From positions 64,001 to 128,000 of the IMG/VR virus record IMGVR_UViG_3300009031_000221: DNA of 64,000 nt; one strand, 5' to 3'. The DNA comes from a virus (lineage: Duplodnaviria; Caudoviricetes). Position 1 is the first letter of the stretch, and each line of letters begins with the position of its first letter. The notes beneath the pieces were generated by a model. The model had not been told where the DNA came from. It did no database searches and saw only the letters and a list, made by a program, of their open reading frames with translations. The translations under genes were made by a program, and so were the position numbers. Below are positions 45,318 to 50,730 of the stretch, piece by piece.

Positions 45318-45345
45318 TCTACGCACTTGACAGGAGAAGTAAGTC
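45318..45345 (-). promoter_or_regulatory. Conserved phage promoter motif, copy 1
   Basis: GACTTACTT-N13-CGTAGA; identical elements and spacing to the copies at 49759 and 50096. Confidence 0.65.
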
Positions 45346-46880: not shown

Positions 46881-47281
46881 ATCGGCGATACCGCAAACCT
46901 CGGGATCCTAACAAACCCCCGGATCTTCGAGTTTGGTGGGTGTACGTTATACAGTCCCTTGAAACCCGATTCGGAAAACGTGGGAATCAACTACCAGGAT
47001 TCCACTATGTCGGGTGCACTACAGAACCTTCACGCCGCATTCGAATGCACAACGGGGAGATTGCAGGCGGAGGGCGCTATACCTCCATGCATCAACCCTG
47101 GGTGCCCCGGGCGCTATTCGGACCCTACACCGGGCAATCGGAAGCATTGAAGGCTGAGCGGGCATTGAAGCACGGCAAACGGGGAACTGACCGAGTCCAG
47201 TGGAAGCCGGAAGATTCCCCCTGGTGCCGTGGGGAAGGCCCGAATCATCCGTGGGTTTTAGACCCTACGTGGAAAGCCTAG
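46877..47281 (+). CDS. SLX1-like GIY-YIG endonuclease
   Basis: VYVIQS...HYVGCTTEPSRRIRMHNGEIAGGGRYT...PW...ALKAE; ATGA overlap start at 46877. Confidence 0.85.
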   Translation: MNRRYRKPRDPNKPPDLRVWWVYVIQSLETRFGKRGNQLPGFHYVGCTTEPSRRIRMHNGEIAGGGRYTSMHQPWVPRALFGPYTGQSEALKAERALKHGKRGTDRVQWKPEDSPWCRGEGPNHPWVLDPTWKA

Positions 47282-49077
47282 TCCTTCGGGACTTCCTGAA
47301 ACACCCGTGCGGCTGCTTGCTTCTTGGCTTCCTTCTTATTCGCCACGGGCATAGAAGTCAACCACTGGCGCTTCCCCTGAATTTGAACCGTGCATGTGCA
47401 TGAGAACAATGGCGCATGTTCAGGCCCGCCCTCACGAGAAAACGTGTACTCCGGCAAAGGGATGGACATCTTCTGGGTGTACTCCTGCAACATGACTACC
47501 GGATCCCCCTTAGGGACGGATGGTTGCAACCCTACATCCACGGGCAAATCCTCTTCATACTCCGCGAACCACGGAATTGGGGATGCTACGTTCGCAATAC
47601 GAGACAAAAGGACAACGACAGCCTTCTGCCGAACTTCCTTGATTGCATTTGCCTGAACCCATCCCCCTTTGACTTCCACCCCACCCTTCAACGTGACCTT
47701 CGCCTGGGTAGAAAATACGGGGGCATGATCCGGCCCTGACCGGTGGGTCTTGTAGGTCACTTCAGACCACCCTGCCAAATTCATTGCCACGGATGCAATA
47801 CTGGTTGCCTTGTACAGGTTGTTGGCCACATTATGGACAATTGCCTCCTGAACCCACCGCCATGCCAGGGAATCATGAGGCGTTTCCAACAACAAGTAGT
47901 ACATGTCCAACAATGTTAACCGATCATCACGGATCCGTTCCCGCAATGATTGTCCCAACTTGTCGGACAACTGATTGGATCGAACACTTGTCTTGATGAC
48001 GCGCTCGAATTGAATGGGGCTCAGCTTGTTCAGGTTGCCGGAATCCAAAGCTTGCGTTGCTTCCTTGACTGCACGTTCCTTGAAGAAGTCCGTGGTATCT
48101 TCTTTGTCCGCAGCAATCTTGGCATTGATGTGTTCGGCAATCGCGACAATATCTTCCCGTGTGTGCGGCAATTTATCGCCCTTGAAGAATGCTTTGATTT
48201 GGCGTTGATTCACCAAGTCCGCATATCGACGAATAGGCGAAGTGGCATGCATGTAGGCAGGAAGATTGAGCCCGTAATGCCCTTCCAAAGTTGCCCCATA
48301 CTCTGCCTGCCGCATCGTCATACCCAGGCGCTGACGCAATGCGTCGATTCCGGCGTCAGGGTACTTGAGTGCCATTTCCAGTTGCGACAGCACCTCCATA
48401 CGAGGTGGGGCATGTGCCTTTACCGTATGGTTGCGAAACAGGATAGGGATCTCATAATGAGAGCATAGCCGTGCCAACTCCGCATTGGCGAGAACCATCA
48501 ATTCCTGAACGATGACATATCCAATAGTTTCCTGGATATCCGGCAGATGCCGAAGTTGCCCTTCCTCAGTCGTCACCCAACCATTGGTTAGGTCATAAAG
48601 AGCAAGCGCACCCGCTGACCGCCGGCGTGCCATCAACCCATCAGCCAACCGTGCCATGTTGGATAACCCCACATGGAGGTCATGTCCCGGGCTATTCAGA
48701 ATGCCCGGGACATCGCCAAAGGACAGCCTAGCTGCACTGCTAAATGGTTCAAACGTGACAATGGGAAAAGTGACAGGTTCCAAGTTTCCGTTCAGTACGG
48801 TGCGGATGACCATTCCTTGCCGAGGCTGACCCTCGTGCAAGGATAGCAATTCATCGGACAACTTCCTGGGAAGCATGGGAGCGTTGCCGGATGCAAAGTA
48901 CCTGGTAGCAATCCGATTGGACGCCATATCGTCAAGGAAACTGCCCTTAGGGACGTCGTTCGTGACGTTGGCTATGACTATGGTAACCGCCCATCCAACG
49001 CCATTGCGTTCGACCCAGATAGCGTCATCGAGGTCTTGCGAATGTGCTGCGTCAATGGTGATTGCATGTATAGTCAT
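47278..49077 (-). CDS. RNase II/R catalytic (RNB) domain fused to two C-terminal dsRNA-binding domains
   Basis: TIDAAHSQDLDDAI, VQELMVLAN and HYGL...HATSPIRRYADL RNB motifs; two dsRBD-like units (SGPDHAPVF...KEVRQKA; DPVVMLQEY...GGPEHAPLF...NKKEAKKQAA). Confidence 0.88.
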   Translation of the reverse strand: MTIHAITIDAAHSQDLDDAIWVERNGVGWAVTIVIANVTNDVPKGSFLDDMASNRIATRYFASGNAPMLPRKLSDELLSLHEGQPRQGMVIRTVLNGNLEPVTFPIVTFEPFSSAARLSFGDVPGILNSPGHDLHVGLSNMARLADGLMARRRSAGALALYDLTNGWVTTEEGQLRHLPDIQETIGYVIVQELMVLANAELARLCSHYEIPILFRNHTVKAHAPPRMEVLSQLEMALKYPDAGIDALRQRLGMTMRQAEYGATLEGHYGLNLPAYMHATSPIRRYADLVNQRQIKAFFKGDKLPHTREDIVAIAEHINAKIAADKEDTTDFFKERAVKEATQALDSGNLNKLSPIQFERVIKTSVRSNQLSDKLGQSLRERIRDDRLTLLDMYYLLLETPHDSLAWRWVQEAIVHNVANNLYKATSIASVAMNLAGWSEVTYKTHRSGPDHAPVFSTQAKVTLKGGVEVKGGWVQANAIKEVRQKAVVVLLSRIANVASPIPWFAEYEEDLPVDVGLQPSVPKGDPVVMLQEYTQKMSIPLPEYTFSREGGPEHAPLFSCTCTVQIQGKRQWLTSMPVANKKEAKKQAAARVFQEVPKD

Positions 49078-49089
49078 ATCCCGGCACTC

Positions 49090-49449
49090 CTAGATGAACT
49101 GGTGCCAGATATACCCAATTCCGACGAGTGCCAGCGATGCCAAGATGCTCGCCAGGATTGCGCCGCAGGAATCGCCCATCTGCTCCAGGAAGGTACGAGT
49201 CTCCTTCTCCTCCCCCTTGACGAGCTTCTTGATCTTCTCAAGCCCGAAGAAAATGCCCATGAGGAACGGACCACTGGCCAGGATGAGCCCGATCCCCTGC
49301 ATCGGGGAAATCGCAGGGACGGCGGGGAATGCCGTGATGACGAACCAGCACCACATCTTCGCCAACGCCCAGCCGTTGACCACGGACGACAGCACGCCAA
49401 AGGCCATAGTGAAAACAAACGCCGCCAAACCAACGAAAAACTTGTTCAT
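49090..49449 (-). CDS. Small multi-pass membrane protein
   Basis: 119 aa with about three hydrophobic segments; ATGA overlap with the upstream gene. Confidence 0.7.
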   Translation of the reverse strand: MNKFFVGLAAFVFTMAFGVLSSVVNGWALAKMWCWFVITAFPAVPAISPMQGIGLILASGPFLMGIFFGLEKIKKLVKGEEKETRTFLEQMGDSCGAILASILASLALVGIGYIWHQFI

Positions 49450-49724
49450 GTATCGCTCCTTGCTTTGTAAGCAGCGTACGCTGCCGTTGCCTCAGGGCTG
49501 AGGGACTGTTCAATGTAGTCACATAGAGCGTCCCGCAACCCTCTCTCACACGGATGCATCTGGATAACGGTGGTCACCCCACCCGCAACCATCACCCCGT
49601 CATCGCCTTTGCGAATGTCTTGCACAATCTCCGCAATCTCAACCGGGTCTTCAAGCTGCGTCACATCCGAGAAGATGTTGATCAATGACTCCAGGATAGG
49701 TCCTTTGTATGCTTGAAGTCTCAT
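49446..49724 (-). CDS. Hypothetical protein, first gene after promoter copy 2
   Basis: 92 aa; GAGG SD; 34 nt downstream of the conserved promoter. Confidence 0.7.
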   Translation of the reverse strand: MRLQAYKGPILESLINIFSDVTQLEDPVEIAEIVQDIRKGDDGVMVAGGVTTVIQMHPCERGLRDALCDYIEQSLSPEATAAYAAYKARSDT

Positions 49725-49758: not shown

Positions 49759-49786
49759 TCTACGCCTACCTTGCGGAAAGTAAGTC
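49759..49786 (-). promoter_or_regulatory. Conserved phage promoter motif, copy 2
   Basis: GACTTACTT-N13-CGTAGA upstream of the 49724 operon that ends in the RNB-dsRBD gene. Confidence 0.7.
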
Positions 49787-49797
49787 ACACAAAAGCA

Positions 49798-49831
49798 CAA
49801 CACCCCCGGTTGGGCCCAACCGGGGGTGTTG
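49798..49831 (-). terminator. Perfect 34-bp palindrome, probable intrinsic terminator of the micro-ORF cassette
   Basis: CAACACCCCCGGTTGGGCCCAACCGGGGGTGTTG is self-complementary; followed on the minus strand by TGCTTTTGTGT. Confidence 0.65.
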
Positions 49832-49866
49832 CATTCACCTTTTTTATATACTCATTAGGTATTAAA

Positions 49867-49935
49867 TCAACAACCCCCGTTAGGGGTTAGGGCCGGGGGT
49901 GCCCGGGCAGACCTCTTTCGCCGTCTATTTTTCAT
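49867..49935 (-). CDS. Micro-ORF B, MKNRRRKRSARAPPALTPNGGC (RAPP arrest-like peptide)
   Basis: Manual translation; GAGGT SD 6 nt upstream; shares RRKRSARAPP with micro-ORF A through synonymous changes only. Confidence 0.75.
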   Translation of the reverse strand: MKNRRRKRSARAPPALTPNGGC

Positions 49936-49995
49936 ACTTATACCTCTATGATTTATGCGTGATTTAGGCTTACATCAACAACTCCCGTTAGGGAG

Positions 49996-50046
49996 TCACG
50001 TCGGCGGCGCTCTGGCAGACCTTTTACGTCGTGTGCGGCTTCTCAT
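49996..50046 (-). CDS. Micro-ORF A, MRSRTRRKRSARAPPT (RAPP arrest-like peptide)
   Basis: Manual translation; alternative in-frame ATG at 50058 (MDTI-); followed by an ACUCCC-UAAC-GGGAGU hairpin. Confidence 0.75.
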   Translation of the reverse strand: MRSRTRRKRSARAPPT

Positions 50047-50095
50047 GATGGTGTCCATTCATCGGGGAAGTTAGGGTGCCCCGGTTCACATACCA

Positions 50096-50123
50096 TCTAC
50101 GCCGATGTCTGGGAAAGTAAGTC
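50096..50123 (-). promoter_or_regulatory. Conserved phage promoter motif, copy 3
   Basis: GACTTACTT-N13-CGTAGA pointing into the micro-ORF cassette. Confidence 0.7.
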
Positions 50124-50467
50124 TACGAATCAACTTTTAGTGATGCCCTCAAGAACTCTAGGAATTCTTCCCATTCCTCTAGGTCACACGCACCCTTCGC
50201 AGCGTTCGCACCCCAACAAGCTAGCACTACATTCGACCTAACGTACCCACGGCTATTGTCCGTCCGGTCAATGGTAGGGATCATCGGATGCCTAGGGCCT
50301 ACATCATCCTTCCACTGCATAGGAACCTTGAACCAGTAGCATAGGCCCGATTGTTCGTCCCAAATCTCTACTATGTCTTGGGCAGTCAGATCGAACGGCA
50401 TGCCCCGTTCAAGGGCACGTCTACGGGCATTGCCTATGAGGATGTTGACCCAAGCAGGATGACTCAT
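50123..50467 (-). CDS. His-Me finger (HNH-like) endonuclease domain protein
   Basis: NARRRA...FDLT...QSGLCYW...PTIDRTDNSRGYVRSNVVLACWGANAAK, a pattern typical of phage HNH-like nucleases; weak SD, possibly truncated. Confidence 0.7.
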   Translation of the reverse strand: MSHPAWVNILIGNARRRALERGMPFDLTAQDIVEIWDEQSGLCYWFKVPMQWKDDVGPRHPMIPTIDRTDNSRGYVRSNVVLACWGANAAKGACDLEEWEEFLEFLRASLKVDS

Positions 50468-50484
50468 ATTACTTCTACGCGATT

Positions 50485-50512
50485 GGCTTACTTCTCATGC
50501 TGCCAGCGTAGT
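50485..50512 (+). promoter_or_regulatory. Conserved phage promoter motif, copy 4
   Basis: GGCTTACTT-N13-CGTAGT, 17 nt upstream of ORF 50530; fixes the orientation of the motif. Confidence 0.65.
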
Positions 50513-50529
50513 AGATGTAGGAGGACACC

Positions 50530-50730
50530 ATGGATACCCGCTTCGAGTGCCTGATTGATTTCACCAAGGGATGCACCATCATCGTGGATGACCACAAGTG
50601 GGAGCCCATTGCTCATGGCGTGGTCAATTACACGTACCGGGATCGAGCGCCCGTGGAGATCGACATCATCGAGGCCGCGATTTCGGCGGGCAAGATCAAG
50701 GATAGTCGCAAGGGCTGGTTCGCGATGTAG
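50530..50730 (+). CDS. Small hypothetical protein (66 aa)
   Basis: AGGAGG SD and its own promoter motif. Confidence 0.75.
   Translation: MDTRFECLIDFTKGCTIIVDDHKWEPIAHGVVNYTYRDRAPVEIDIIEAAISAGKIKDSRKGWFAM

Follow-up and report, generated by a model that had tools for sequence, protein, structure and literature searches.

Groundwater metagenomes are the origin of a large phage genome in which we find a minus-strand transcription unit of approximately 300 bases with two micro-ORFs, U1 and U2. Judging from the substitutions that separate the two copies, their shared peptide core, RRKRSARAPP, is under purifying selection, and the constraint is on the peptide frame rather than the nucleotides as far as RAPP, and on the RNA directly after Pro-Pro. 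We tentatively read the cassette as a translation-coupled transcription attenuator, in which RAPP-gated micro-ORFs would form the leader of an RNB-dsRBD operon, although we place this reading somewhat short of an even chance.

The window, i.e., the whole 64,000-nucleotide stretch that was analysed, corresponds to bases 64001-128000 of a 536,053-bp IMG/VR virus record that is judged complete. Positions given here are those of the window, and all of the cassette and operon features described lie on the minus strand. Near-identical 151-nt fragments are present at low depth in one wetland run and one freshwater run. The cassette sequence was also sought in RNA runs and was absent from them, with matches in DNA contigs only. 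The phage encodes 68 tRNAs, including 6 Arg, 4 Pro and 5 Lys species and one with a UUA anticodon, as well as a tmRNA and a release factor, while a search of the genome found neither Pth nor EF-P. Among these translation genes, the tRNA with the UUA anticodon is regarded as a UAA-suppressor tRNA.

Micro-ORFs U1 and U2

Two minus-strand micro-ORFs had been proposed in the initial annotation, at 50046-49996 and 49935-49867, and inspection of the sequence confirms both. U1 encodes the 16-aa peptide MRSRTRRKRSARAPPT, with its RAPP codons at 50013-50002 and a UGA-C stop; initiation at another in-frame ATG, at 50058, would extend it to 20 aa. U2 encodes the 22-aa peptide MKNRRRKRSARAPPALTPNGGC, with RAPP codons at 49905-49894 and its UGA stop at 49869-49867. 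RAPP is separated from the stop by 1 codon in U1 and by 7 codons in U2. The two units share a 63-nt direct repeat (50032-49970 and 49924-49862) that aligns without gaps at 76% identity. The 111-bp spacing reported earlier is correct as the distance from ATG to ATG, but the in-register spacing is 108 nt, and a one-codon indel accounts for the larger value. The peptide common to both units can be written as M-(R/K)-x-R-(x)-RRKRSARAPP. Besides the two units there are no paralogues within the phage genome, and no similar peptide is found elsewhere in it.

Over the 10 codons (30 nt) of the RRKRSARAPP core, the units show 7 differences, which, as had been claimed, are all synonymous: six are at third positions and one is an AGA/CGG exchange (first plus third position). 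The RAPP codons alone are conserved through 4 synonymous changes. When 7 changes were placed randomly in 500,000 trials, the core peptide was retained in a fraction of only 5.6e-5 to 1.4e-4. Of the other five frames of the core, an antisense frame performs best, with 2 replacements; since it fits worse than the sense frame, antisense coding was rejected. Of roughly 9 synonymous sites, 7 have changed; they are therefore close to saturation, and the unit copies are old. Past Pro-Pro, all 8 differences are non-synonymous, with one pair being hairpin-compensatory, the stops are at different places, and the C-terminal tails after RAPP are unlike in both length and sequence (T in U1 and ALTPNGGC in U2). 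This sharp switch from a peptide to an RNA constraint at Pro-Pro would be rare by chance, and we regard it as the strongest internal evidence pointing to a nascent peptide that acts in cis.

The residues before RAPP are conserved and very basic, and number only 10-11, or 15 when counted from the ATG at 50058. At the putative stall point the nascent chain would be 13-18 residues long, which is no longer than the shortest characterised arrest sequences. The 16-22-residue U1 and U2 peptides contain no hydrophobic stretch or topogenic signal, and with neither a signal peptide nor another means of release, the arrest could be constitutive. Rare Arg codons are weakly enriched, with AGR accounting for 5 of 11 Arg codons compared to 14% in genes (about p 0.01). 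Two further interpretations of the frames were rejected. U1 and U2 share one frame and are split only by two UGA codons, so reassignment of UGA was considered; however, the long ORFs of the phage end in all three stop codons, and TGA is the commonest (136/338). A programmed frameshift at the Pro codons was discarded given that the sequence has no conserved slippery site.

Transcription of the cassette would start from promoter P1 (50096-50123; GACTTACTTTCC-N9-GGCGTAGA[T]), which shares bases with the stop codon of the HNH gene upstream. The initial annotation lists this promoter as copy 3; the motif is not limited to four copies, and we count 114-118 copies of TTACTT-N12-GCGTAG in the 536-kb genome, of which P1 is a perfect example. 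The motif is usually located 35-50 nt upstream of a start codon, and after it come a short GC hairpin and a ribosome-binding site of the AAGGAAC type. Related phages carry the same motif and, by these sequence features, P1 is a genuine phage promoter. The GC hairpin that is typical of this promoter class is present in the 5'-UTR at 50063-50083 (CGGGG-CACCCUAACUU-CCCCG), and its loop holds the first of several CCCUAAC copies. U1 has the signal GGAC 7 nt before its ATG, at a spacing as for the AAGGAAC sites of other genes, and U2 has the Shine-Dalgarno sequence AGAGGU (49942-49947) 6 nt before its ATG. These ribosome-binding sites and ATG codons suggest that both micro-ORFs are translated. GGACACC also precedes the ATG of a conserved 66-aa gene at 50530; the possibility that the promoter and start of U1 are a remnant of the 5' end of that gene was rejected, as an alignment shows the promoter consensus only.

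Hairpins, terminator and candidate antiterminator

Both units have a hairpin that begins 5 nt past the codon for the second Pro and has UGUUGAU behind it, and one U-A to C-G double change is present between the two hairpins. In these respects the earlier description stands, but in the register proposed there the U2 hairpin contains an A.G mismatch; an alternative register with 8 bp and a 3-nt loop is equally stable. The unit-1 hairpin (49980-49997; GACUCCC-UAAC-GGGAGUU) has a folding energy of -10.7 kcal/mol, and none of 200 shuffles fold as well. The unit-2 hairpin (49871-49889; UAACCCCU / GGGGGUUG) has -10.5 kcal/mol and appears terminator-like in a terminator scan. Counted from the Pro codon in the P site, the 5' arm occupies +11 to +17 in both units. 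Outside the hairpins, the units fold no better than shuffles (z -0.2 and -0.4). CCCUAAC is present in four copies in 192 nt, the sole such cluster in the genome, and two of the synonymous changes are also wobble-compatible in a possible P1/P2/P3 fold of the RNA.

The micro-ORF pair is flanked by a promoter and a 34-bp palindrome, and the next gene has its own promoter (P2, 49786-49759), all in agreement with the initial annotation. The palindrome (49798-49831) is perfect, has a 17-bp stem of -32.3 kcal/mol (z -4.9) and is followed by UGCUUUUG. Together with its U tract, UGCUUUUGUGU, it makes up an intrinsic terminator at 49787-49831, for which we designate the two strands T5 (49831-49815; region 3) and T3 (49814-49798; region 4). 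In each unit hairpin, a segment made up of the loop, the 3' arm and the tail is nearly a copy of T3, CCCAACCGGGGGUGUUG. In unit 1, this segment (A1, region 2'; 49993-49976; CCCUAACGGGAGUUGUUG) matches T3 at 14 of 17 positions, and in unit 2 (A2, region 2; 49868-49885; CCCUAACGGGGGUUGUUG) at 15 of 17, making A2 a candidate antiterminator strand. The corresponding 5' arms are region 1' in unit 1 and region 1 (49889-49882) in unit 2. Aligned with the units, the terminator downstream looks like a third unit that has decayed, and the complementarity between A2 and T5 could be a by-product of such descent.

The A2:T5 duplex has an energy of -23.4 kcal/mol, which is reached by none of 2000 A2 shuffles, while the A1:T5 duplex (-16.7 kcal/mol) is not above shuffle level. 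An RNA that ends at T5 is predicted to fold as A2:T5 (-27 kcal/mol) even with the small hairpin 5' arm available. For the whole 257-nt leader, 3 of 300 dinucleotide-preserving shuffles reach the observed best, i.e., the significance is moderate (p about 0.01). The U2 stop UGA (49869-49867) is located inside A2, and the U1 stop precedes its own hairpin. The pairings 1:2 (-10.5 kcal/mol), 2:3 (-23.4 kcal/mol) and 3:4 (-36.1 kcal/mol) are mutually exclusive. Because the full-length terminator is far stabler than the alternative (-36 versus -23 kcal/mol), any antitermination effect would have to be purely kinetic.

In the attenuator that we tentatively propose, P1 would drive the leader, and a ribosome translating U2 would stall at RAP-P. 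Held at that position, the ribosome would mask the 5' arm of the hairpin (49889-49882) and not the core of A2 (49879-49868), and the freed region 2 could capture region 3 before region 4 has been made, allowing the RNA polymerase to continue past the terminator into the operon. Without a stall, the ribosome would instead reach the U2 stop in region 2 and mask A2, upon which the terminator would form; without translation, the 1:2 hairpin would have a head start. With a standard ribosome footprint, this masking geometry holds by coordinates for U2 but not for U1. Unit 1 might repeat this gate in weaker form or serve to load ribosomes. Candidate modulators of the stall would be the supply of Pro-tRNA or of Arg/Lys-tRNA, or general translation capacity. 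The 21-tRNA array of the same genome is preceded by a leader ORF of 34 codons that overlaps an antiterminator/terminator pair, and translation-coupled attenuation is therefore plausible for this phage.

A more specific and in our view doubtful version is that RAPP arrest on these ultra-short, signal-less micro-ORFs reads the translation state of the host (Pro/Arg/Lys-tRNA supply, or ribosome integrity under defence), with two tandem gates relaying it to terminator read-through and the RNase II/R-like operon. To date, RAPP-type arrest peptides are known only from bacterial chromosomes, where they act as leaders; the majority are long monitoring substrates, secreted or in the membrane, through which translation of the following gene is controlled. 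If true, no arrest-peptide switch would have been described from a virus before this sensor, nor a RAPP switch that acts on an intrinsic terminator. Should the micro-ORFs stall ribosomes, about 13-18 highly basic residues plus RAPP would suffice for arrest, RAPP could couple to transcription termination, and sensors of translation status would be a further part of the equipment of giant phages that have their own tRNAs, tmRNA and release factor.

The same data can be read as evidence for free peptides acting in trans, i.e., one or two very basic products of 16-22 residues that bind nucleic acids or ribosomes or act as a decoy substrate, with RAPP being incidental and the hairpins and palindrome serving only to stabilise and end the RNA. 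Purifying selection at the peptide level fits a free product equally well, and so does a unit that has its own promoter and a strong terminator and is followed by a gene with its own promoter. However, conservation ends exactly at Pro-Pro and the tails differ, and we estimate the chance that a 10-residue core would end in a known arrest core at about 1e-3 to 1e-2. Free peptides would also leave the in-register hairpins, the four CCCUAAC copies and the A2:T5 complementarity unexplained, and the genome has no similar peptide elsewhere. Taken together, we consider this explanation unlikely.

Downstream operon and genomic neighbourhood

For the attenuator reading, the candidate target is the operon directly downstream (47278-49724), which encodes a 92-aa ORFan, a 119-aa hydrophobic protein and a 599-aa RNB-dsRBD protein. 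The latter matches the Pfam families RNB (RNase II/R core; 1.9e-55) and dsrm (5.3e-16), while a comparison with 5.8 billion proteins gave no relative of the 92-aa protein. P2 (49759-49786) begins 12 nt past the terminator stem, ahead of the operon, and would blunt any regulation from P1; we see this as the main argument against a regulatory leader. P2 is a minority variant of the promoter motif that ends in TAGAC, a form found in 9 of 118 copies versus 94 of 118 for TAGAT, and by this criterion it may be weak.

With 1.1 kb as the query, blastn found no homologue of the cassette in 50,697 phage records. We also searched viral contigs, metagenome contigs and species genomes with exact and degenerate patterns for the hairpin with its tail, the AGGTCTGCC core, RRKRSARAPP in back-translation, and SARAPP together with the hairpin; all matches were inspected, and each was off-frame or a chance occurrence within a gene. 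As an exact pattern, the hairpin-plus-tail 20-mer is absent from 185,579 species genomes and has one chance match each in metagenome and viral contigs. Rfam gave 0 matches in the window at the gathering score, and relaxed thresholds yielded sub-threshold, terminator-driven matches only. Through HNH homologues we reached 11 loci in related phages, including one on a 520-kb contig, ENA ERZ19398053 scaffold_7. Neither a RAPP or RGPP micro-ORF nor a cassette at the syntenic site is present in any of the 11, and the homologues that the initial annotation had suggested looking for in related phages (a short RAPP ORF followed by a hairpin) did not turn up in these loci. At least 4 of the 11 have the order RNB operon, small gene and promoter, followed by HNH on the opposite strand. 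In the phage studied here, the HNH gene and the conserved 66-aa gene, which is 60% identical to its counterpart, are inverted, and the cassette and the 92-aa ORFan are located at the inversion junction. By these comparisons the cassette appears to be lineage-specific, represented by two paralogous copies in a single genome (n = 1).

Its absence from the syntenic site in the 11 related-phage loci and its position at the junction of the HNH and 66-aa gene inversion are what one would expect of an untranslated small RNA, or of young junk at a rearrangement junction that arose by recent local duplication beside a mobile HNH gene, in which case the frames and their synonymous pattern would be fortuitous or left over from past selection. 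The features at the RNA level, i.e., the four CCCUAAC copies and the possible P1/P2/P3 fold, could be accommodated as well. What makes this explanation improbable is that 7 out of 7 core differences are synonymous (P about 1e-4) and that the near-saturated synonymous sites indicate an old duplication, yet one with zero replacements. Moreover, both frames retain an ATG, a ribosome-binding site and a stop, the folds outside the hairpins remain at shuffle level (z -0.2, -0.4), and there is no Rfam match.

With a strong terminator (-32 kcal/mol) and another promoter directly after it, in a phage that invests heavily in translation (68 tRNAs, tmRNA, UAA-suppressor tRNA and release factor), the cassette might also be a stand-alone stalling RNA that ends at the palindrome and regulates no gene in cis, functioning as a sensor, as a ribosome or tRNA sink, or via stall-dependent RNA stability or processing. 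We judge this distinctly improbable, as the presence of the U2 stop inside the strand complementary to T5 is hard to explain unless the choice of terminator matters, and an RNA with two sites would be stoichiometrically weak for ribosome titration. The sequence analysis lends no support to the ribosome-trap, EF-P or anticodon-nuclease ideas of the initial annotation. The earlier description of the cassette as a stand-alone unit with its own terminator is probably not correct: because T5 is complementary to the 3' half of the unit-2 hairpin, and the U2 stop is located there, the palindrome reads better as the 3:4 element of an attenuator that feeds the next operon. Finally, it is highly improbable that the cassette is an RNA mimic of a host element, either a solitary CRISPR-repeat-like anti-CRISPR RNA or a protein sponge acting via the CCCUAAC hairpins, since repeated hairpin elements behind a strong promoter and a CCCUAAC cluster unique in the genome would fit, but the hairpin-plus-tail 20-mer is unmatched as an exact pattern in 185,579 species genomes and the codon-periodic substitutions would be left unexplained.

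Comparison with known arrest peptides and attenuators

In the ApdA/ApdP class, the arrest point carries an R-A-P-P, RGPP, RAPG or RAGP core. The initial annotation had taken RAPP as the hallmark of an arrest class, which is borne out by published work on the ends of small ORFs (PMC12992588, PMC10951233). Among arrest cores, RAPP and RGPP tolerate sequence context best. Both are refractory to EF-P and depleted from proteomes, and small ORFs upstream of diverse genes show an enrichment of RAPP close to their C-termini (PMC12992588). The arrest core alone is insufficient, as an N-terminal adjacent region is needed that is only loosely specified, and arrest sequences can be as short as 15-20 residues (PMC7897499, PMC12992588); ApdA needs about 20 C-terminal residues and ApdP 15-20 (PMC7897499). 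Full-text literature searches found no paper that connects RAPP or arrest peptides with phages and gave no phage example of a RAPP-type arrest peptide, in line with the earlier statement that no description of such a phage cassette was known.

RAPP leaders extend beyond protein localisation, as illustrated by CruR of Bordetella pertussis, a RAPP-dependent uORF in front of a TonB-dependent receptor (PMC9426467, as cited in PMC12992588); CruR differs from the cassette in being a longer, copper-responsive chromosomal leader. The cassette is also close to ApdA/ApdP and the RAPP/RGPP uORFs of Streptomyces lividans (PMC7897499, PMC10951233, PMC12992588), which have the same R-A-P-P core, here 1-7 codons before the stop, and, like the cassette, a hairpin so near downstream that a ribosome stalled at the core would melt it. 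In the cassette, the N-terminal adjacent region is unlike that of other members, which is usual for the class. In contrast, the ApdA/ApdP and S. lividans ORFs have 80-200 codons compared to 16-22 in the cassette, and ApdA/ApdP are monitoring substrates that are released by pulling force, whereas the cassette encodes no signal peptide or transmembrane segment. Furthermore, the cassette is phage-borne and tandemly duplicated, and its putative arrest is read from sequence. Unlike in ApdA/ApdP, its hairpin does not hide a Shine-Dalgarno sequence but appears to compete with an intrinsic terminator, which would amount to transcriptional instead of translational control.

The proposed arrangement also resembles classical leader-peptide attenuators such as trpL, hisL and pheL and the Pro-codon leaders mgtL/mgtP of Salmonella. 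Shared features are a short ORF (14-30 codons), four regions that pair as 1:2, 2:3 and 3:4, a stall site located 5' of region 1, a stop placed for masking of region 2, and an intrinsic terminator. Differences from these systems are that the stall would come from a nascent-peptide arrest motif rather than hungry codons, and that the cassette has two tandem leader ORFs, a second promoter past the terminator, and a 1:2 pairing that is much weaker than 2:3. The leader peptides TnaC and Erm/Cat are short nascent chains that act wholly inside the exit tunnel; as would be the case for the cassette, the whole peptide is in the tunnel while acting and the effect is on the fate of downstream RNA, but these leaders require a small-molecule cofactor (tryptophan or an antibiotic) and have other motifs. 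The bar minigenes of phage lambda consist of 2 codons, cause peptidyl-tRNA drop-off and have no arrest motif or attenuator; what they would share with the cassette is that phage micro-ORFs act through translation and not through their product. Given that it has neither a topogenic signal nor a hairpin that masks a Shine-Dalgarno sequence, we file the cassette apart from the ApdA/ApdP families, as an element that probably works as an arrest-peptide leader.

Reading frame and spacer of the two micro-ORFs

The two minus-strand micro-ORFs of the cassette, U1 and U2, each with RAPP near its end and a hairpin just after the RAPP codons, lie in one reading frame, with 111 nt from ATG to ATG (49867-50046 of the window), and are separated by only two UGA codons. 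UGA read-through would give a 59-residue peptide with an internal repeat, although TGA is a normal stop codon in this phage. In the U1 hairpin, the 3' arm includes GGGAG, with AUG-UAA 6 nt further on (49970-49986, minus strand); this is a minimal start-stop ORF, which would be exposed once the hairpin opens. The equivalent position in U2 reads AUU-UAA, so that the start-stop feature is conserved only by half. The spacer between U1 and U2 carries an 11-nt tandem repeat, GCCUAAAUCAC / GCAUAAAUCAU (49949-49969, minus strand).

Four copies of CCCUAAC fall within 192 nt on the minus strand (49879-50076): one in the UTR hairpin loop, one in the U1 hairpin and two in U2. Genome-wide, the motif occurs 40 times on both strands together, fewer than composition predicts, and the cassette is the sole site with at least three copies per 250 nt. 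Its complement, GUUAGGG, is absent from the phage tRNAs and tmRNA.

Promoter family and terminator palindrome

The phage promoter motif, TTACTT-N12-GCGTAGAT, has 114 to 118 copies in the genome, which are dense between 365 and 510 kb; in the window they lie at 45318-45345, 49759-49786 and 50096-50123 (minus strand) and at 50485-50512 (plus strand). The motif is followed in stereotyped order by approximately 8 nt, a GC hairpin, AAGGAAC and ATG. Copies of the family, which is common to related phages, also precede tRNA genes.

In Logan assemblies of the source samples, contigs end precisely at the 34-bp palindrome (49798-49831), which is retained as a 34-nt contig of its own. These breaks arise in the assembly graph from the perfect inverted repeat.

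Translation genes elsewhere in the genome

The whole phage genome encodes a UAA-suppressor tRNA of type II, whose anticodon is UUA (483473-483562, minus strand), 67 further tRNAs (region 208343-259393), a tmRNA with tag ANDNVEFTSFAAAA (225791-226190, minus strand) and a release factor (394595-394873). At 208075-208260 (plus strand), an intrinsic terminator just before the 21-tRNA array has a 5' arm that pairs with the 3' end of a 34-codon leader ORF, MKTLTT...GVGGR*. This leader is a candidate for a second translation-coupled attenuator of the genome.

Genomic setting of the cassette

Comparison of window positions 50123-50730 with four related phages (loci L096, L100, L222 and L223) showed that the HNH endonuclease gene and a conserved 66-aa gene (50530-50730, plus strand) are inverted relative to all four, and the inversion junction holds the cassette and the 92-aa ORFan. 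The protein encoded at 47278-49077 (minus strand), which is kept in related phages, begins its RNase II/R catalytic core (RNB) at residue 4 and has a fused C-terminal dsRBD in place of cold-shock and S1 domains.
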